A DNA stretch of 64,000 nt, taken from NCBI GenBank assembly GCA_000165345.1, contig CM000432.1, forward strand, positions 192,001 to 256,000. The letters are read 5' to 3'. The translations under genes and the position numbers were made by a program. Under the pieces are notes generated by a model. That model ran no database searches. It had not been told where the DNA came from and saw nothing but the letters and a program-made list of their open reading frames with translations. Of this stretch, positions 3,285 to 54,361 are shown piece after piece; position 1 is the first letter of the stretch; each line of letters begins with the position of its first letter.

Positions 3285-3471
3285 TTTGATATGTATTCGA
3301 GAATAGGATGGTTTTGCTTCATCAAAGAAAATAAATAATAAGATAATCAGACTTTTAGATTTGGAATTTAATTAACAGTTTGAGTTAAAAGTCAAAATTT
3401 CGCTGCTTACCTTTGAAAAGCTATTTTTTTCTAAATTGTAAAAAATAATCAATTTTTGACAAAACTGTCAG

Positions 3472-3483
3472 TTGGCGCCAAAG
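3472..3483. promoter_or_regulatory. E2F-like site TTGGCGCCAAAGG between NAP1 (3' end) and ESF2 (5' end)
   Basis: The same GC-rich motif class. It lies about 190 bp upstream of the ESF2 ATG. Confidence 0.4.
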
Positions 3484-9277: not shown

Positions 9278-9305
9278 TTTCGGCGCCACAAAATTGCCGC
9301 CAAAG
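9278..9305. promoter_or_regulatory. paired E2F-like sites (TTTCGGCGCC ... TTGCCGCCAAAG) upstream of the Kazal-protein gene
   Basis: Two GC islands within 30 nt, about 230 bp 5' of the 9537 start. Confidence 0.4.
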
Positions 9306-9536
9306 TGTAGTGGTAGCCTATTAAGTAACTTAACCATGCAAAGTATGATAAAAAAGAAAAATTTGCACCAAATAAAGTATAAAAGAAATTTAATGAAAAT
9401 TTGAGAATTAAAAATACTTAGAATTTGAGTAGTTTAAAAATATAAGGTGAAGTTTAAGAAGAAAGTGGGTTGGTAAGCTAAAGGTGAATATTGAAAATAA
9501 ATCAATAAGGAAATCAAAAGAAGAAAAAAATTAGGG

Positions 9537-14247: not shown

Positions 14248-14266
14248 TTGGGCGGGCTTCCCCCAA
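14248..14266. promoter_or_regulatory. E2F-like site TTTGGGCGGGCTTCCCCC in the divergent ASF1 / repeat-protein intergenic region
   Basis: The only GC island in a roughly 900-bp region that is about 90% AT. ASF1 is a classical S-phase/E2F target in other eukaryotes. Confidence 0.4.
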
Positions 14267-14723
14267 ATATAATTAATTAATAATTTTTTTCGTGATCTAA
14301 GCGAGGTTGTAAAATAAGGACAAAAGTAAAAATATAAAATAAATGATAAATTAAGAAAATAATGATAATAAAAGTAGGATTAAATAATATTATTTGATGA
14401 ATATTAGTAGCAATTAGAATAGTATTTCAAAACTATATTTGAAGATTTAATCCAAATTGGATGAGTTTTCTTATAATTGTTTTTTTTTTTCATTATATTT
14501 AATAAAAGGTACCGACTAATTAATTCAGTGGGGGGTAAACACAAATTTTTTTTTTTTTTTAAATTTAAAATATTAATTTATAAATATTCTAGATTTAATT
14601 AATCCGAGTTAAAATCAAGATAGATATTTATAGATATATATTAAAATAATAATAAATTATAATATAAATAAATAAATATATTAAAAAGTAATTATTATGT
14701 AAGATTAAAAAATAGTATAAAAT

Positions 14724-19043
<4,320 letters not shown>

Positions 19044-27329: not shown

Positions 27330-28195
27330 ATTTTTCAGATCCAGAAAAATTACCTTAATCAAGTGATTGTAAATACCTTAATATATTTCTCTTAGACTCT
27401 GTAAAACAAGTTTTAAAGATCTTTTATTATTTTATATTTTTAGTTATTTTTTCTAATTCAAACCTTTATACAATTTTTATGCCACAAGAATTCCCGCCAA
27501 AATTTTATTTATTAATTTATTTTAATTTTATACTTAATTACTCCAGGATTTATCTGTAGAAATGTGTGTGAGGCGAATAATATGGTCAGAAAAAGAACAA
27601 GTTCATTTAATAAATTCAATACCTTACAAAAACTTTTAATCTTAATCAAAATAAATTTGTTATATGAATATATATATATATATATATATATGATATAATA
27701 TAAATACGTATGCCCTGTATCTATTTTCTATTATTGCATTTTTATTTTTATAATTTAATTCTAAAAATGGGAAGCCCGCCATTTTCTAATTTATATTGCA
27801 TATTTATTTGTATTTGGAAGCCTATAAAAGAAAGGAAAACTAGATGAAAAGGAGGAATGAGAATTTAATGTAGTAATAAGAAGACAATGTGAAAATAAGA
27901 AAATAGTACAATAATGGGAGGAAATTATGTAAAATAAAAAGTGGGGAAAGAAAATTTAGGCTGTTATCAAAAAAAAAGAAAAATAGTCAAATATTTCCTA
28001 CTCTTATATTAGAGATTAAGGGTAGGAGAAGTTAAAAAAAAATGAAAAACAGAAAATAGGTGAAAGTTAAAAAGAGGAAGAAATGTAATTAGAATTTGGA
28101 TTTGAATATTTAAGAAAAATTTCACGATTTTCTTATATCCGAAAAAAAAGTTGATTAGTAAAGGTATCGCATTATACCGGTAAATAGGCGCGTTG

Positions 28196-28218
28196 AATTT
28201 GCCGCCAAAGTGCATGCA
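28196..28218. promoter_or_regulatory. AATTTGCCGCCAAAG followed by TGCATGCA between the YIP1 5' end and the UAP1 3' end
   Basis: An E2F-like motif directly abutting GCATGCA. It is preceded by TATACCGGTAAATAGGCGCG. Confidence 0.4.
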
Positions 28219-28313: not shown

Positions 28314-30125
<1,812 letters not shown>

Positions 30126-30224: not shown

Positions 30225-30420
30225 TATATATATTCTCTCTTTCTATATATTTATCTCTTTCTTTCATTAATTCTATATCTATTTCAGTTCCTATATACCT
30301 CTCTTTCTATTTATCTCTCTTTCTATTTATCTCTCTTTCTATTTATCTCTCTTTCTTTTCTTTCATTAATTCTATATCTACTTCTCTTTCTATATACCTC
30401 TATTTCTCTCTCTTATACCA
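30225..30420. repeat. pyrimidine (CT)-rich compound tandem repeat (ctctctttctatttat x4, plus a duplicated ctttctttcattaattctatatcta unit)
   Basis: Directly visible repetition in the UAP1 / CstF-50 intergenic region. Confidence 0.85.
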
Positions 30421-30459
30421 ATAATATTTTCCATGCTCATTTTTAAGATCACGCACATA

Positions 30460-30487
30460 GCGGCGCCGGCGGGAAAATCCGGTACCC
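30460..30487. promoter_or_regulatory. GC cluster GCGGCGCCGGCGGGAAAATCCGGTACCC in the divergent UAP1 / CstF-50 promoter region
   Basis: An E2F-like GGCGGGAAAA fused to ATCCGGTACCC. The same composite recurs at 34197-34233 and in part at 54194-54219. Confidence 0.45.
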
Positions 30488-30764: not shown

Positions 30765-32978
30765 ATGAATAATAATGATAATACAAAAATGATACCAATG
30801 AGTGATAGTATGGAAGATCATCTCAGTGTTATGCCAATCAATACAGATGAATCATCTTCTGGCAATAACATTAATACAAATATTTATGGTGAAAATAAAC
30901 TTAATATTACAAAAACAAATGAGCTTGGCTCTTCAACTATTAAAGAATACCTTGAATTTGAACCACTAAAAATTAGTCTATATGAATTAATTATGAGACA
31001 ATTAATGGATGATGGATTAATTGAAGTAGCACAGTTACTACATATTAAAACAAAAACATCAATACCAATACATATTAATAAAAATTGCCTCTATAATCTT
31101 TATAAGACTGTTACATATCTTCCAATGGATTTAAGACAAGGAAATCATGAAAATCATGAAAATAATGATCTTTTAGAATTAAAAAGTACTAATTACGTTA
31201 AAAGAATTGAATCTGTGTTACCACATCTTGAGAATTTAACAAAACAATGGATACCTATTCGACCAAAATCCAGATTTCTGTATTATTATAAAAAGAAAGG
31301 TAATTATTCAAATGCTATAATGAAATCATATCCTTTAATTAATATTAATGATAAAATTACAAATACAAAACATCATATTTCTGATGATTTATCTAATCAT
31401 CATGTTACTCCTATAACTGAAAATGATCAGAATAATCCAATTATTAATGATGAACATGAAAATCAAAAATCAAAAGAAAAACCTTGCAAAGAATTTTATT
31501 TCCTTGAAAACTTATCAAAAATCAAATTACAAGATTCTTGGAATACTATTCCAAATATTTCTGTCAATTTTAGAGGAAATAGTGTCTTATCTAATCATAG
31601 ACCATACTGTAGAGCTTTAGCTGTAAATCCTAATGGAGGATATATTGCTACAGGAGGAGCTGATGGTATTGTAAAAATTGTTCCTGCACCTTCACAAGGT
31701 ATTAATGGTACTTTTAATTCATCTATTTTTGGAATTGGTACTAATTCTAGTCTATCATCACAACAAAAAACATTTACTGAAAGTAAAGGTATTATTACAT
31801 CCCTAGAGTACCGAATTAGAAAAGATATACTCATTTCTGGAGATACTGATTCTACTTTAATTATATATGATGTTAAAGGTATTTCTGGTGGTAATTCTGG
31901 AGATATGGATGAAATTACACCAAATATTACTAATATTAATAATAACAATCAATCCAGAATTTCAAAAAAACCAATACAAAATATTCGTGAAAGTTCTCCA
32001 ATTAACTGTATACAAATGCATCCTTTAGATGATCACTTTTTTGTTGGTACTCAAGATCCAATCTTAAGATTATACGATATTCATACAAATGACTCATTTA
32101 CATCATCACATCCTATTCATCAACATTGTTCTGCTATTAATGATATTAAAATTTCTCAAGATGGATCAATTGTATGTACCTGTAGTGAAGATGGTACTAT
32201 CAAATTCTGGGATTCTGTTAATTTATCTTGTATTAATACTATTTATGGATCTCATAGTGGATTTCCAGTACATTCTTTATCATTTTCTTTATCTCAAAAA
32301 TATTTAATATCTTCAGGAGGAGATGGTATTGCTAGATTATGGGATCTTAGAATGGGAAGAGAATTAGTCAAGTATTCATCAGGATTAAGAAGTTCTTGTC
32401 ATTCAAAAGTATCGTTTTTGATTGATGAAAGATATACTATTCTTTCTGCAATTGATGATACTGGTTCATCTTATAGTAATATAATGAATAATGTTTCAAA
32501 TTTAATGGATGATCATAACTTAGGATTAGATAAAAATTCGGATTTAAGTAAAGATCATTCAATGTTAATTCAAAATAGGGATGAATTATTAGATCCTTTA
32601 TCTACAAATATTGGATTAAGAGTAAATAATAAATCAAACTTATTTAACTCAAAAATGGTCAATGATATGTTAAAATCAAGAAACTTTAAAATATTGGATC
32701 GTCAAATTAAACAGAATCCTATTGGTGATCTTTTAATATTTAATACTTTATCAGGAAATCTAATTGGGACAGTAGAAGGAATTCATGATGCTCCTATAAT
32801 GAACTTTGAACTTTTATATAATAATAATCTAAATGGTAATATAAATGGAAACAATGTATCAACAAGTAATAATAATCAAAATAATCTTCCATGTTCAATT
32901 TCAGATTGTTCATTAGTAACAGTAAGTGATGATGGGAAATGTAGAATCTTAGACTTGAATTATTCAAGTTTATTATAA
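30765..32978 (+). CDS. CSTF1: cleavage stimulation factor 50 kDa subunit (CstF-50/CSTF1) homologue, WD40
   Basis: The dimerisation-helix motif LYELIMRQLMDDGLIEVAQLL corresponds to QLYKLIISQLLYDGY in CstF-50. WD40 blades follow, with characteristic segments HRPYCRALAVNPNGGYIATGGADGIVKI, FVGTQDPILRLYDIHT, CTCSEDGTIKFWD and LISSGGDGIARLWDLRMGRELVKY. The track ORF starts at a TTG at 30714. The first ATG is at 30765. Confidence 0.8.
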   Translation: MNNNDNTKMIPMSDSMEDHLSVMPINTDESSSGNNINTNIYGENKLNITKTNELGSSTIKEYLEFEPLKISLYELIMRQLMDDGLIEVAQLLHIKTKTSIPIHINKNCLYNLYKTVTYLPMDLRQGNHENHENNDLLELKSTNYVKRIESVLPHLENLTKQWIPIRPKSRFLYYYKKKGNYSNAIMKSYPLININDKITNTKHHISDDLSNHHVTPITENDQNNPIINDEHENQKSKEKPCKEFYFLENLSKIKLQDSWNTIPNISVNFRGNSVLSNHRPYCRALAVNPNGGYIATGGADGIVKIVPAPSQGINGTFNSSIFGIGTNSSLSSQQKTFTESKGIITSLEYRIRKDILISGDTDSTLIIYDVKGISGGNSGDMDEITPNITNINNNNQSRISKKPIQNIRESSPINCIQMHPLDDHFFVGTQDPILRLYDIHTNDSFTSSHPIHQHCSAINDIKISQDGSIVCTCSEDGTIKFWDSVNLSCINTIYGSHSGFPVHSLSFSLSQKYLISSGGDGIARLWDLRMGRELVKYSSGLRSSCHSKVSFLIDERYTILSAIDDTGSSYSNIMNNVSNLMDDHNLGLDKNSDLSKDHSMLIQNRDELLDPLSTNIGLRVNNKSNLFNSKMVNDMLKSRNFKILDRQIKQNPIGDLLIFNTLSGNLIGTVEGIHDAPIMNFELLYNNNLNGNINGNNVSTSNNNQNNLPCSISDCSLVTVSDDGKCRILDLNYSSLL

Positions 32979-33069: not shown

Positions 33070-34047
33070 CTAGGTTATTCTTGAAAGACTTTGTTTACTA
33101 TTACCTTTGTAAGAATAAGAATCTCTTAGCTGATTATCAAAAAGTATATCACTTTTATTTAATCTTCTTAGAGCATTTTTAACAAGGGGGGACTTCATAA
33201 GTAAATTTTTAGAAGTCTTTTTGTTATCAAGAAATATAGGATTTAAGTTTTGAGCTTTATCGAGATGAATTTGTTTTCTTTTGGTTTGTATTTCTTTAAG
33301 AAGAAGCATTCTTTCATCTTTTTCAAAATCATCCATGTAATTATATCTTGTATTACTAGGATTAATAAGCTTTTCTCTATCTTGAGGAGTATTAACTTCT
33401 TTTTTTAGTTGATTATGATGATTGTGATTTGGAAACATAAAGTTACTTCTAGATTGACTTTTATTGAATATAAGTGATTTTTCATCAAAATCATTAATTT
33501 GATTAGAATTCTTTTGATTCATTTGAATGATGTTCATTTCTCTTTTAAGATTATGATTGAAGCTTTGGTGTTCTATCCAACTTTCCTTTTCTCTTCTTTG
33601 AATTAAATCTTGATTAGTCAAAGCTAAAAGATCTAAATGGCCTTTATGAGTATATTTAGATTGAAATTGAGTGATATTTGGTAACTTTTTACAGACTAAT
33701 AAATCTTTATTACTTTCATAATCTTCAATATGAGGAAAATCATTCATATTTAAGGTACCTGGAGGATTATTAATAATTGACTTAATACTTTCATGATCAT
33801 CTTTATTTTTATTCATATAATCTAGATCTGGATAATAATCTTGGCAAATTATTTGACTAAGGTTATTTTCATACTTGGTTTGATCAAGCTGTTTTTTTCT
33901 ATTCGTTTTTATCTGGTAAGGATTCTCTAATTCAGTTGCTCTTCTTAATCTTTCTAAAACATCACCTTGTATTTTCTGAAGCGCTCTTTCATTAGTATTA
34001 TATTTTCGAATAGACTTTCTTAACGCTAGTTCTTCATCTTTACTCAT
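33070..34047 (-). CDS. ESS2/DGCR14 (Es2) family nuclear/splicing-associated protein, tentative
   Basis: 325 aa. The N-terminal segment LENPYQ...LSQIICQDYYPDLDYMN resembles the conserved Es2 motif (..IQRDFFPDVEKL..). The remainder is low-complexity and basic. Confidence 0.5.
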   Translation of the reverse strand: MSKDEELALRKSIRKYNTNERALQKIQGDVLERLRRATELENPYQIKTNRKKQLDQTKYENNLSQIICQDYYPDLDYMNKNKDDHESIKSIINNPPGTLNMNDFPHIEDYESNKDLLVCKKLPNITQFQSKYTHKGHLDLLALTNQDLIQRREKESWIEHQSFNHNLKREMNIIQMNQKNSNQINDFDEKSLIFNKSQSRSNFMFPNHNHHNQLKKEVNTPQDREKLINPSNTRYNYMDDFEKDERMLLLKEIQTKRKQIHLDKAQNLNPIFLDNKKTSKNLLMKSPLVKNALRRLNKSDILFDNQLRDSYSYKGNSKQSLSRIT

Positions 34048-34196
34048 TAATTAAACTTTGTTATATATAGAATAATGTTGTTTATATTTATATATATATG
34101 AATATATGGACATTAATGTTTTTACAATTTTTTTTTGTATTTTCAAATTTTTTTTTTCGATCTAATTAATATACTTGCTAAAAAAAATTCGGAGAT

Positions 34197-50652: not shown

Positions 50653-52674
50653 TTATTTGTCAACAAAAGATAGACAAAAATCGTAAAGTTGTCCAGCTCT
50701 TTGTGCATCTAATCTAATAACTCTAGAGAATTCATCCTTAGAAAGATGAGGTATTCCATTTGTTGAGATATCTTGTATACCAGAAAGGTTATTATTGCTT
50801 GAATGATTAGTTGATCCTTTTCTAGTTTTACTATTAAGGCTTAAATGGTATTTGGCTTCTTGAATAAGAATTCTCTTAGAGAGTATATAGAAAATTGGCG
50901 GGAGTTGTATTTGATCACAAAAGAGCTTTTCCTGATCAGTAAGTAAGGAAGCACCAGGATAACTTTCAATAGGTACAGCAGATGAAGAATTAGAATTGGA
51001 TGTAGTAGAGATAGTATTAATGGACTGTTGATTAGTAAGTGGAAGAGAAGATGAATTAGAAGAGTTAGTATTAAGAGGAAGATTAGGATTGGAAATAGAG
51101 ATTTGGCTTTTTTGTTGTTTCTTAATGGCTCTAGCTTGGCCTTCATATACAAAAGGAGTGGAAATTCCTGATTTAGGAACAGTTTTAATATTTCCAAGTC
51201 CAAGTCCAGCAGGAGCAATAAGATTTCCCGATTGAGTTTGGTTAATGATTTTACATTTAATATCTTCGCGTCTCTTCTTTTCTTCTTCATACCTTTTAAC
51301 TTCTTCCAAAGTTCGAATTCCTAAACTGCACCATTCTTGTACTTTTTGGAGATGATTTCTAATTCTTTTTTCTTCAATAAGTAAAGAAACAAGCTTTTCT
51401 TGTTCTTCTTCAGTTTGGAATCTAGAAATAGGTTTTAAGAATGAGTGCAAATCTCTTTCATCCTTGGTTCTCTTTTTCTCCTTTTGTTGTTGTAATTTAA
51501 TATCCAAAAGATTACGTTCAATAACAAACCTTTTTCTATATGTTCTTTCGTCAAGCTTGGAATTATAGATCTCAAGTATTTGAAGTTTAAGTTCTTTTTC
51601 TTGAGGAGTGTCAGAATCTCTAAACTCCATATCAGCTAATAAAAGTTCAGCATCATTATCATATTCGACATCGAAATCTCCTCTTAAAGGCATATATCCA
51701 ATAACGCTAGTACTAGGTTTGGATTGGCTTCCATTACTTGTACTAGTAGTTTTATTACCAGTATTACCACCAGAAGCTCTTCCATAAGGTTGTTTTTTGA
51801 CTTGAGGATTTTCTAATTCTTGTTTGAGTTTAGAATCATTTTCTGTATTAATAGAGTTAGATGATGAATCTTTATGAGATGATTGATCAGTAATTTTCGA
51901 TTCGGAGTCATCTTTTTCTTGTCCAGATTTGTTTAAAAGATTGAGATCTTGTTTAATAGCTTCTAATTCTGGAGAATTAGCAATATCTTGGGTTTTTTGT
52001 ATAAGATTAAGATAATTTCTAGTATCTGGTAAAGGTTTAGTTTTACTATTCAAATAGAAATTATTATAATGTTTTTCGCATTCGTCAGCTGTATGACTTC
52101 CAAATCCTGGTTTTTGAGTCTTTTGGTACATAGTTAGAGCTCCAGCTGGACCTTCAGTAATATATTTGGAAATTTCAGACCAGTTTCCTAATCCATATCT
52201 TGAAACTGCTTCCATTAAAAGAAGTTCCTCTTCTGCTGTCCAGTTTTCAGTTAGTAAGTTAAATGTATATCTTCCTACAGGAATGTATTTATGATTAGGT
52301 TTATGATCGTTACTTGACTTTCCTTGACAGAAACAATCCAAACATAGATCATATTCAATACATTCTGCACATCTTATTCTATAATCCCATGTATCTTTTT
52401 TGCATACATCACATCTAAATTTTCCATCGATAATGTTTAAGTCATTAACTCTGGTTTCATCATCCATTTGATCAAGAGCTCCACTCTTTTCTTTTAATTC
52501 TTCTAATCCTTTTTTCATAATTTCAGATAAATCTTCTTTGATAATAGATGAATCACTTAGAGTAGAAATCTCAACAGTATTTAATAAATTTACTCCATCA
52601 GGATGAATTGTTTCCTCACCTAATAAGTTCATAGCCTCCTCTGGAGCACTTTCATTTTCTTTTTCTCCAGACAT
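50653..52674 (-). CDS. ADA2: transcriptional adaptor ADA2 (SAGA/ADA complex)
   Basis: 673 aa. It has a ZZ zinc finger (CDVCKKDTWDYRIRCAECIEYDLCLDCFCQGKSSNDH), a SANT/Myb domain (WTAEEELLLMEAVSRYGLGNWSEISKYI) and a C-terminal SWIRM-like region, in the canonical ADA2 order. Confidence 0.85.
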   Translation of the reverse strand: MSGEKENESAPEEAMNLLGEETIHPDGVNLLNTVEISTLSDSSIIKEDLSEIMKKGLEELKEKSGALDQMDDETRVNDLNIIDGKFRCDVCKKDTWDYRIRCAECIEYDLCLDCFCQGKSSNDHKPNHKYIPVGRYTFNLLTENWTAEEELLLMEAVSRYGLGNWSEISKYITEGPAGALTMYQKTQKPGFGSHTADECEKHYNNFYLNSKTKPLPDTRNYLNLIQKTQDIANSPELEAIKQDLNLLNKSGQEKDDSESKITDQSSHKDSSSNSINTENDSKLKQELENPQVKKQPYGRASGGNTGNKTTSTSNGSQSKPSTSVIGYMPLRGDFDVEYDNDAELLLADMEFRDSDTPQEKELKLQILEIYNSKLDERTYRKRFVIERNLLDIKLQQQKEKKRTKDERDLHSFLKPISRFQTEEEQEKLVSLLIEEKRIRNHLQKVQEWCSLGIRTLEEVKRYEEEKKRREDIKCKIINQTQSGNLIAPAGLGLGNIKTVPKSGISTPFVYEGQARAIKKQQKSQISISNPNLPLNTNSSNSSSLPLTNQQSINTISTTSNSNSSSAVPIESYPGASLLTDQEKLFCDQIQLPPIFYILSKRILIQEAKYHLSLNSKTRKGSTNHSSNNNLSGIQDISTNGIPHLSKDEFSRVIRLDAQRAGQLYDFCLSFVDK

Positions 52675-52954: not shown

Positions 52955-52966
52955 TTTGGCGCCAAA
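52955..52966. promoter_or_regulatory. perfect palindromic E2F-like site TTTGGCGCCAAA, with a second TTGGCGCC at 53027-53034, upstream of ADA2
   Basis: A GC island in otherwise >80% AT intergenic DNA. TTT[GC][GC]CGC[GC]AAA is the E2F/DP consensus. It lies about 280 bp 5' of the ADA2 start. Confidence 0.45.
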
Positions 52967-53111
52967 CCCATTTTTTTTTAATTTGAAAGAAATCGTACCG
53001 ATACAGTCAAAAAATTGTCGGGGTAGTTGGCGCCATTTATGATTAAAGTTAAAAAATAAACTAAAGAAAATGAAAAAAAGATGTTTATATACAAATAAAA
53101 TAAATAAATAA

Positions 53112-53556: not shown

Positions 53557-53885
53557 TTACTGTTCTCTCTTCTTCAAACTTGCTGGTATCATTGATTCTA
53601 ACATTCTAAAGCTTATTCTAGCTTTGCTAGTATTTTCAGCTATTGCAAAATATGATATTCTAGATTGATGCATTATATTGGAAGATGCTGTATCCCTTAA
53701 GATGTTATCTCCCCACTCACTATAAAGAGTTCATACAAAGTAGTTATTGTAAGATTATTAATTCATAAGAAATTAAAATAATAATAAACTCACCTTCTTT
53801 TAGTATTAATATGTCCAGTTCCTTGATACTTACTATGCAATTGCTCTAATTGAAAATATATTGTTGATCTGTTTTCCCCATCCAT
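53557..53885 (-). CDS. SF3B5: splicing factor 3b subunit 5 (SF3B5/SF3b10), 2-exon gene missed by the ORF track
   Basis: Exon 1 is 53794-53885 (MDGENRSTIYFQLEQLHSKYQGTGHINTKR). The GTGAGT donor is at 53793-53788 and the intron is 53720-53787. Exon 2 is 53557-53719 (SEWGDNILRDTASSNIMHQSRISYFAIAENTSKARISFRMLESMIPASLKKREQ*). It aligns with human SF3B5 (RYTIHSQLEHLQSKYIGTGHADTTKWEW...LLNYFAIAENESKARVRFNLMEKMLQPCG). Confidence 0.8.
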
Positions 53886-54145
53886 TTCTCCCAAATAACA
53901 AAAAAAGAAAATATTATATTTGTTTTTAATAATTAATTTTGAATTATTTTTTTTTTTTTTAACCTATGAATTTGGAAAATAATTCTATCAGGAACTTGCT
54001 TTTTATTATAATACTATATACAATTGGACTTCTCCCTTATCTTTCTATAATCTAATATTAATAAACTACTTCCCACTCAAATTATTCTCACTACTAGATT
54101 CTTTTTTCTTTGTAATTTTCTTTTTAATCTTCATCTTGATTTTGG

Positions 54146-54219
54146 GTTTGCGCGCCAAAATTCTACGATTTTAATATTAATTAAATATTATTTGGGTACC
54201 CGTGTAATAGGCGCCAAAT
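54146..54219. promoter_or_regulatory. TTTGCGCGCCAAAA, GGGTACCCGTG and TAGGCGCCAAAT between SF3B5 and UTP13
   Basis: Three GC islands in an AT-rich divergent promoter region. Confidence 0.4.
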
Positions 54220-54361
54220 GTCAAATTTGAAATTTTATAATGTAAATAATTGGTCGAATTTTTTTTAGTTGCTAATTTAAACAATATTTAAAAAAAAAGG
54301 AAAAGCAAATAAAAAGTTCTCTTTTTGATTGGAAGTGCATTTATTATATTAAAATTATATA

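Follow-up and report, generated by a model that had tools for sequence, protein, structure and literature searches.

Cryptosporidium is the sole apicomplexan genus with E2F/DP, and the E2F-like motifs DTTGSCGCCH (Motif 3) and TTTGGCGGGAAV (Motif 4) are the most abundant overrepresented motifs upstream of Cryptosporidium parvum genes, with E2F-like motifs found upstream of 163 of 200 coexpression clusters (PMC3734150; PMC4117751). C. parvum has two to three E2F genes and two DP genes (PMC3734150, PMC12246861, 10.1101/2025.01.17.633476), and pocket-protein/DREAM components are reportedly mostly absent (PMC3734150). E2F motifs also dominate the peaks obtained from C. parvum sporozoites by assay for transposase-accessible chromatin with sequencing (ATAC-seq), and more than half of C. 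parvum ATAC peaks are annotated as bidirectional promoters (10.1101/2025.01.17.633476). With E2F sites dominating both promoters and open chromatin, the questions at stake are how a near-ubiquitous motif yields different expression patterns and, Rb/DREAM components being largely missing, which partners E2F has. Here, we analyzed a 64-kb stretch of C. parvum DNA (contig CM000432.1, positions 192,001 to 256,000; the window), in which the palindrome GGTACC lies near E2F-type sites between the genes for UDP-N-acetylglucosamine pyrophosphorylase (UAP) and a WD40 protein (site 1), upstream of cgd4_830 (site 2), between SF3b10 and a Utp13-like gene (site 3), and, as the related string CGTACCG, upstream of ADA2. 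Judging from its recurrence and its conservation among species, we consider it somewhat probable (roughly 0.55) that GGTACC(G) is the site of a separate factor acting within E2F promoter modules.

The E2F half of this arrangement is already described and is the best-documented promoter motif in C. parvum. The GC cores of the window are the same as the published E2F/DP sites (Oberstaller 2013), being strongly enriched, intergenic, and conserved across species, but the published logos lack a GGTACC partner. For the palindrome, a GTAC-reading domain is available in the phylum, that of PfAP2-G, which recognizes (Gx)GTACNC (PMC6631176), with G[T/C]GTAC as its matrix (PMC2965767 supplement). Plasmodium AP2-G sites have a palindromic GTAC core in an apicomplexan promoter, as GGTACC does, and this core is present at sites 1 to 3 and at the ADA2 site. 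In C. parvum, GGGTACCC of site 3 is an exact match to GNGTACNC, and GGGTAC, found at sites 1 and 2, matches the half-site. However, the outer G/C of the AP2-G motif is not kept at site 1 (GGGTAC, GAGTAC, AGGTAC, and TGGTAC), where the conserved flank is GGTACC-G, and AP2-G drives sexual commitment genes, whereas GGTACC sites occur at housekeeping nuclear genes. A strict AP2-G motif was rejected because G at −3 and C at +3 vary across species and only C. parvum site 3 fits fully.

A related palindrome, GGTGCACC, is bound by the C. parvum AP2 domain of cgd4_3820 (Oberstaller 2014). It shares the pattern GG-T..A-CC with GGTACC, the AP2 domain is non-stage-specific, and GTACC of C. parvum site 3 is GCACC in chipmunk genotype I and C. 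canis. However, GGTGCACC spans 8 bp and, unlike GGTACC, has GC at its center, and its half-site spacing differs by 2 bp, leaving the comparison as a lead only. Metazoan CDE/CHR modules also place a second short element beside an E2F-type site at nuclear housekeeping and cell cycle promoters, as is seen here; in those modules, the spacing is fixed at 4 nt and the partner is TTYGAA, read by LIN54. In contrast, the GGTACC partner has a different sequence, and across the four sites both distance and orientation vary.

Conservation of GGTACC and its E2F neighbors

GC-rich cores in the window had been described in a first-pass annotation, made from the letters alone, as E2F-like. With the E2F consensus taken from PMC3734150, TTTSSCGC occurred 14 times in the window against 0.37 expected, 13 of these occurrences being intergenic. 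Cores of the form TTTSSCGC or [C/G]GCGC[G/C] with T/A-rich flanks were found at 30462-30477, 34196-34207, 54150-54159, 54210-54218, 52955-52966, and 53027-53035. These data support the cores as true E2F-type sites, and C. parvum itself encodes E2F/DP (PMC3734150, PMC4117751).

To follow the second element across species, syntenic loci were compared in C. meleagridis, chipmunk genotype I, C. ubiquitum, C. canis, C. felis, and C. ryanae, giving 64 kb of C. parvum sequence and about 250 kb of orthologous loci; the C. andersoni locus was also fetched, and synteny was broken there. Conservation was ranked in sliding 6-column windows over each intergenic alignment. This cross-species conservation provides the main support for GGTACC; it is strong for site 1 and moderate for site 2, and site 3 lacks it.

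On its minus strand, the site 1 module consists of GGTACC (in its extended conserved form, GGTACCGR), a spacer, TTCCCGCCGGCGCC, GTGCGTGATCTTAAAA, and ATGAGCATGG, with a conserved span of about 65 bp. Invariant positions across seven species are GTA.C, CGC.GGCG, and GATCT, and the variants of the palindrome are GGTATC in C. ryanae and GAGTACC in C. meleagridis. The distance from GGTACC to the tandem E2F site is 5 to 7 bp in all seven species, and the spacer varies in both sequence and length (GGATTTT, GACTTTT, GGCGTC, GAGTT, GGGTTT, AGGTTT, and GGGAT). Of 660 windows, GGCGCC ranks 1st and GGTACC 2nd, level with GATCT, and the remainder of the 400- to 660-bp intergenic region is unalignable in C. 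canis, C. felis, and C. ryanae. This is selection on GGTACC itself and not a mutational cold spot, and at site 1 the purifying selection matches in strength that acting on the E2F core. The first-pass annotation had reported an identical 11- to 13-nt element at sites 1 and 2. The strings do match in C. parvum, but the flanks of the common 11-mer (ATCC..C) are not kept in other species, which retain only CGGTACC; the shared core is GGTACC followed by G.

The third conserved component of the site 1 module, GATCT at 30446-30450, lies 20 to 25 bp from the E2F tandem, and the GTGCGTGATCTTAAAA-ATGAGCATGG block that contains it may correspond to the core promoter or to the region where transcription starts. 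Counts in the window did not support GATCT(A/T)A as an enriched motif (31 observed versus 42.8 expected, with GTGATCT at 7 versus 7.3), and this reading was rejected; such strings are conserved at specific positions only. A hidden first exon or upstream open reading frame (ORF) in the ATGAGCATGG block was also rejected because of a frame-breaking extra G in chipmunk genotype I and a different peptide in C. ubiquitum. Both the GATCT block and TAATTAGATC of site 2 resemble GAYCTMD and HTAGVTCW of "Unknown set 1." An ETS-like reading of ACCGGAT at sites 1 and 2 was rejected because GGA is unconserved (GGTACCGGA, GAC, GGC, GAG, GGG, and AGG). Elsewhere in the UAP/WD40 intergenic region, at 30290-30360, about four to five copies of a tandem repeat, tctctttctatttatc, form a C. 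parvum-specific insertion relative to C. meleagridis and chipmunk genotype I.

At site 2, four species (C. parvum, C. meleagridis, chipmunk genotype I, and C. ubiquitum) share an identical ATCACGGGTACCG, and its C. canis counterpart, GGGTATCG, differs by one transition. The GGTACC window reaches only the top 22%, partly because the same region holds the well-conserved RPL24 3' end. GGCG..AAA of the neighboring E2F site is invariant in five species (rank 11 of 711), as is TAATTAGATC (rank 1 of 711), and the nearest good E2F core is 19 to 26 bp from GGTACC. In an alignment-free test over nine orthologous intergenic regions, few non-E2F GC-hexamers were retained in at least three to four of five divergent species; the retained hexamers include GGTACC (site 1) and CACGGGTA/CCGTGA (site 2).

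The ADA2 site, which is absent from the first-pass annotation, was noticed through a census of GGTACC in the other species. It lies between the E2F sites TTTGGCGCCAAA (52955-52966) and TTGGCGCCA (53027-53035), about 28 bp from the nearest good core, and its conservation window is in the top 10.5%. In the alignment, it consists of two adjacent RTACCG-like hexamers (Table 1) between two invariant E2F sites; at the C. felis locus, GGTACC and the E2F pair are 14 bp apart. Every species but chipmunk genotype I, or five of six besides C. parvum, keeps one or more good GTACC copies, not always at the same position, which is the pattern expected of a selected binding site under turnover.

Site 3 is a weak member of the set. 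GGTACC is 8 bp from the E2F core there, and the adjacent GGCGCCA as well as a TGTCAAATTTGAAAT block are conserved in all species (TTTGAA window, rank 1 of 798; GGCGCC window, top 4%). GGGTACCC itself is kept in C. meleagridis only: the aligned position is CAGCACCC in chipmunk genotype I and C. canis and has no counterpart in C. felis and C. ryanae. This occurrence had been counted as the third independent instance, but its conservation ends at C. meleagridis. Taken by locus, support for GGTACC is good at one, fair at two, and poor at site 3. As a separate observation, no part of the SF3b10/Utp13 intergenic region is better conserved than TGTCAAATTTGAAATT (54219-54234), directly 3' of GGCGCCAAA, and we take its TTTGAA to resemble the metazoan CHR element, the partner of E2F-like CDE sites.

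Recurrence of GGTACC within the window

The strings reported in the first-pass annotation were all recovered: GGCGGGAAAATCCGGTACCC at 30468-30487, TTTCCCGCCAAAGCG...AAATCCGGTACCCGTG at 34196/7-34233, and GGGTACCCGTG at 54194-54204, with TAATAGGCGCCAAAT after it. Each of the three sites lies in intergenic DNA, and GGTACC does recur in promoters beside E2F sites. A surrounding AT content of about 80% is roughly right for the intergenic DNA (77%); the whole window is 72% AT. The window contains exactly two copies of ATCCGGTACCC (30477 and 34220) and exactly two of GGTACCCGTG (34224 and 54195), and none of 100 dinucleotide-preserving shuffles of the window contained either. The assertion that such recurrence is far more than chance is weakened by the post hoc choice of element, by the recurrences expected by chance, by failure under multiple-testing correction, and by the unconserved 11-mer flanks.

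Because the element was chosen after the fact, all recurring GC-rich 11-mers were counted; 14 were observed versus 0.9 expected under a second-order Markov model. ATCCGGTACCC is among the few that are neither E2F variants with shared flanks nor coding or trinucleotide repeats, the classes to which most of the 14 belong. Intergenic DNA no more than 50 bp from an E2F core accounts for 3.4% of the window, and it holds all three distinct GGGTACC sites. For E2F proximity, GGGTAC and GGTACC were top ranked among 260 composition-matched non-E2F hexamers, with three of seven GGTACC occurrences lying within 50 bp of an intergenic E2F core (P of about 1.2e-3). In the AT-rich species, 9 of 10 intergenic GGTACC occurrences are within 50 bp of an E2F-type site.

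The same survey gave observations on the E2F sites themselves. An exact 12-mer, GGCGGGCTTCCC, joining an E2F core to CTTCCC, occurs in two unrelated promoters, at 14251-14262(+) and 27769-27780(−); no other recurring 11-mer contains 8 or more G/C. The 14251 copy is followed at 14292 by CGTGATCT, a string also present in the conserved block of site 1. E2F variants with extended common flanks include CACTTTGGCGGCA, found twice (9295-9307 and 28200-28212), and AGTTGGCGCCA, also found twice (3470-3480 and 53025-53035), which suggests that functional E2F sites are longer than the 8-bp core. At 28213, an E2F-variant copy abuts GTGCATGCA, the known AP2_1 motif.

A separate factor site or another explanation

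If the proposed reading is right, GGTACC (as GGTACCG/R, with GGTATC tolerated) would be a cis-regulatory protein-binding site in the promoters of a subset of Cryptosporidium genes, placed in nucleosome-sized promoter modules at distances of a few to about 30 bp from the sites for E2F/DP. The occupant would be a sequence-specific factor other than E2F/DP, and the palindrome suggests that this factor may bind as a dimer or through a palindrome-reading domain. The factor and E2F/DP together would set promoter activity or keep the promoter open. Its reader could have an ApiAP2 domain, and a Myb/SANT protein or a zinc-finger protein is equally possible; one lead, PfL1900w (of which cgd6_5320_D4 is the putative orthologue, with predicted RNA-processing targets), was rejected because its matrix is TCTACA, not GTAC. 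GGTACC would act as an accessory at a minority of E2F promoters, mostly bidirectional ones, not as an obligatory fused half.

What had been proposed at first was an E2F core fused to the palindrome. Of that interpretation, the E2F-type cores, the recurrence in promoters, and selection at site 1 stand, but the fused unit does not, nor is the third occurrence conserved beyond C. meleagridis. A dimeric factor cooperating with E2F/DP, also suggested there, would be a reasonable reading of the palindrome and its proximity to E2F. Distances at the four sites are 5 to 7, 8, 19 to 26, and about 28 bp, and GGTACC and E2F do not keep one order. Of the 25 intergenic E2F cores in the window, about 21 lack a neighboring GGTACC. 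Spacing from 5 to about 28 bp indicates a loose promoter module, not a fused composite.

GGTACC(G) appears to be an undescribed candidate cis-element of a familiar kind. No GTAC(C)-like motif is present among the 25 motifs in 11 families of Oberstaller 2013 (PMC3734150, Table 1) or in PMC12246861 (Table 3; six motif families and 18 ApiAP2 primary motifs), and no GTAC(C)-type element is in Mullapudi 2007 or Cohn 2010. Text searches for GTAC, GGTA, and TACC gave no match in PMC3734150, PMC4117751, PMC1779779, PMC2832001, or the ATAC preprint (10.1101/2025.01.17.633476), and a literature search for GGTACC or GTACC together with Cryptosporidium returned only primers and restriction (KpnI) sites. 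GGTACC is probably an uncatalogued, minor docking site for a regulatory protein. More specifically, but only tentatively, we propose that an unassigned Cryptosporidium DNA-binding protein reads GGTACC(G) and partners with E2F/DP at mostly bidirectional promoters of genes for nuclear gene expression (SF3b10, ES2-like, Utp13, ADA2, and possibly CstF-50), with AP2 proteins that gave no motif on protein-binding microarrays, a Myb protein, or a zinc-finger protein as candidates. The functional theme of the target genes (splicing, rRNA processing, and SAGA) was not used as evidence, with n at about 6 and CstF-50 and ES2 assignments below threshold.

Several results weigh against a separate factor site. 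GGTACC at site 3 is at background conservation (top 32%), and the site 2 element is lost in C. felis and C. ryanae even though the E2F site stays in C. felis. Only four or five sites are known, from one 64-kb region and its orthologues. The association between GGTACC and E2F is not significant after correction, with an expectation of 0.31 across the 260 control hexamers, so that the window statistics alone are suggestive only, and about 0.9 GC-rich 11-mer recurrences are expected by chance. Upstream-region motif discovery and MEME analysis of ATAC peaks in C. parvum did not report GGTACC, and, in the tabulated part of PMC12246861, a GTAC-type primary motif is reported for none of 18 C. parvum ApiAP2 proteins, four of which (cgd6_5320, cgd3_1980, cgd6_1140, and cgd3_2970) gave no motif. 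Most of these points, together with the middling rank of site 2, the unconserved 11-mer flanks, and the lack of GGTACC in published genome-wide motif lists, suit an explanation in which GGTACC at site 1 is simply part of the approximately 65-bp UAP/WD40 core-promoter block and the other copies reflect chance and the clustering of GC strings in promoters, with no shared factor. We regard this explanation as rather doubtful, given that C. ubiquitum keeps the 13-nt GGTACC block of site 2, and C. canis, most of whose sequence there is unalignable, keeps it with a single transition; that a GTACC persists at the ADA2 promoter as far as C. ryanae, flanked by the same pair of E2F sites and showing the turnover that marks a binding site under selection; and that the 9-of-10 proximity to E2F sites is seen in AT-rich species.

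The variable spacing could also reflect binding independent of E2F/DP, by a general regulatory or boundary factor of the Reb1-like Myb type that keeps bidirectional promoters nucleosome free. Three of the four sites are in head-to-head promoters, the class to which more than half of C. parvum ATAC peaks belong, and GTACCCGT at sites 2 and 3 presumably resembles the yeast Reb1 site TTACCCG. Yeast Reb1 acts at nucleosome-free bidirectional promoters, but the CCCG side is not conserved at site 1 or in its orthologues (plus strand CGGTACCC, CGGTACTC, CGGTACCT, or CGGTACCA, by species), which makes the shared core GGTACCG and not TACCCG and makes a factor of this type improbable. A single E2F/DP or atypical E2F complex that contacts both sequences, with GGTACC as an extended E2F flank, would account for the 5- to 7-bp spacing of site 1, seen in seven species, and for the 8-bp spacing of site 3. 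It is highly improbable in view of the 19- to 26-bp spacing at site 2 and about 28 bp at ADA2, the position of GGTACC on different sides of E2F, the free variation of spacer bases, the lack of GGTACC at most E2F sites, and the published C. parvum E2F logos, which end at TTTGGCGGGAAV. The sites lie 177 to 356 bp upstream of start codons, so a long 5' untranslated region (UTR) could include them, but a role as an RNA-level element in a 5' UTR or unannotated transcript is scarcely credible for a palindromic DNA motif that occurs in both orientations relative to genes, has classical DNA-level E2F sites as neighbors, and has no Rfam match; the conserved site 1 block is also noncoding by the frame and peptide differences given above. 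A search of the window with Rfam (gathering threshold) and ARAGORN found no RNA-family matches and no tRNAs, and an origin in a noncoding RNA or tRNA was rejected on that basis.

A reader of GGTACC(G) within E2F modules would, if confirmed, be the first combinatorial E2F partner known from an apicomplexan, and it would be conserved throughout the intestinal Cryptosporidium clade. A second element that is conserved next to E2F sites would offer a handle for electrophoretic mobility shift assays, DNA pulldown, DNA affinity purification sequencing, and C. parvum reporter and CRISPR systems. Should genome-wide enrichment not be found, the result would shrink to known E2F sites and one locus-specific conserved promoter block. 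More generally, cross-species footprinting, for which more than 10 Cryptosporidium genomes are available, finds elements missed by expression-cluster motif discovery, such as GGTACC, the GATCT blocks, and GTCTCGAGAC.

Genes and features of the window

Exact protein lookup placed the window in the cgd4_830/cgd4_840 region of C. parvum chromosome 4: ORF 33070-34047(−) corresponds to hypothetical protein Q5CQG3 of C. parvum Iowa II (cgd4_830 position), and ORF 34764-35165(−) is ribosomal protein L24, Cgd4_840. The DNA has the character of a compact, AT-rich, eukaryotic genome almost without introns, with a GC content of 27.7% overall and 22.8% in the intergenic DNA, which makes up 28% of the window. 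Gene names around the sites (Table 1) were taken from Pfam and orthologue annotation. The gap of 2 kb between ADA2 and Utp13 appears empty because the spliced SF3b10 gene is invisible to a simple ORF listing; this gene is also without annotation in the C. canis assembly.

Table 1. Positions of GGTACC-type sites, E2F-type sites, conserved blocks, and flanking genes
Feature	Position	Strand	Remarks
Site 1 GGTACC core	30481-30486		Divergent promoter of UAP and WD40 genes; plus-strand CGGTACC at 30480-30486
Site 1 tandem E2F, GGCGCC + GGCGGGAAAA	30462-30477		Matches DTTGSCGCCH and TTTGGCGGGAAV (PMC3734150)
Site 1 downstream block, GTGCGTGATCTTAAAA-ATGAGCATGG	30431-30456	−	GATCT invariant in 7 species
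Site 2 element, CGGTACCCGTGAT (minus strand ATCACGGGTACCG)	34223-34235		177 bp upstream of cgd4_830 ATG
Site 2 E2F, TTTCCCGCCAAA (minus strand TTTGGCGGGAAA)	34196-34207		Exact published Motif 4
Degenerate E2F-like stretch, GCGTGGAAAAAAA	34208-34220		Between site 2 E2F site and GGTACC
Site 2 block, GATCTAATTA (minus strand TAATTAGATC)	34159-34168		Between E2F site and cgd4_830 start codon
Site 3, GGGTACCCGTG	54194-54204		Divergent promoter of SF3b10 (−) and Utp13-like gene (+)
Site 3 E2F, GGCGCCAAA, and conserved block, TGTCAAATTTGAAATT	54210-54234		
Second site 3 E2F, GCGCGCCAAA	54150-54159		
ADA2 site, CGTACCG-ATACAG	52994-53006	+	Fourth site; 321 bp upstream of ADA2
ADA2 hexamer pair, C. parvum	52995-53006		GTACCG, ATACAG
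ADA2 hexamer pair, C. meleagridis			ATACCG, GTACCG
ADA2 hexamer pair, chipmunk genotype I			GTGCCG, TTACCG
ADA2 hexamer pair, C. canis			TTACGG, GTACCA
ADA2 hexamer pair, C. ryanae			GGTATC, GGTACC
Candidate fifth site, GGTACCG	14508-14514	+	216 bp upstream of ORF 14724-19043(+)
UAP	28314-30125	−	
WD40 protein	about 30765-32978	+	N terminus with weak CstF-50 likeness, below Pfam threshold
ES2-like protein, cgd4_830	33070-34047	−	ES2 assignment below Pfam threshold
ADA2	50653-52674	−	
SF3b10 (SF3B5)	about 53557-53894	−	Small, spliced
Utp13-like WD40 protein	54698-57826	+	

Further sites and conserved blocks

The candidate fifth site at 14508 adjoins a G-box-like string, GTGGGGGG, and the nearest E2F site is about 250 bp away. 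The ORF downstream of it (14724-19043) encodes 1,439 amino acids with no Pfam match and contains internal GGAGGAG/CTCCTC repeats. GC and AT skew are extreme in this ORF, with a GC skew of 0.74 at 16 to 18 kb, and the long antisense ORFs inside it (15542-18550) are repeat artifacts.

In C. andersoni (L011, 5085-5125), GGTATCGGATAC lies 21 to 27 bp from CCCGCC and about 100 bp upstream of a gene for a 1,071-amino-acid protein with no homologue in the window. This may be an independent instance of tandem RTAYCG with an E2F site in the distant gastric clade and is given as an anecdote, not as evidence.

Near RPL24, the minus-strand block AATCATTAATAATAAACTC at 34388-34410, about 350 bp past the RPL24 stop codon, is invariant in five species, including C. 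felis, and, with its AATAAA, is probably the RPL24 3'-end/polyadenylation region. Upstream of RPL24 (cgd4_840), at 35541-35575, the sequence CCCGCC...GCCGCCGTCTCGAGACGAGAC contains the palindrome GTCTCGAGAC. Its hexamers are retained in the orthologous intergenic region of all five divergent species, making it the best-conserved non-E2F block of the survey, and the block resembles the "Unknown set 1" motifs VYGTCBC and RMGACG (Oberstaller 2013).

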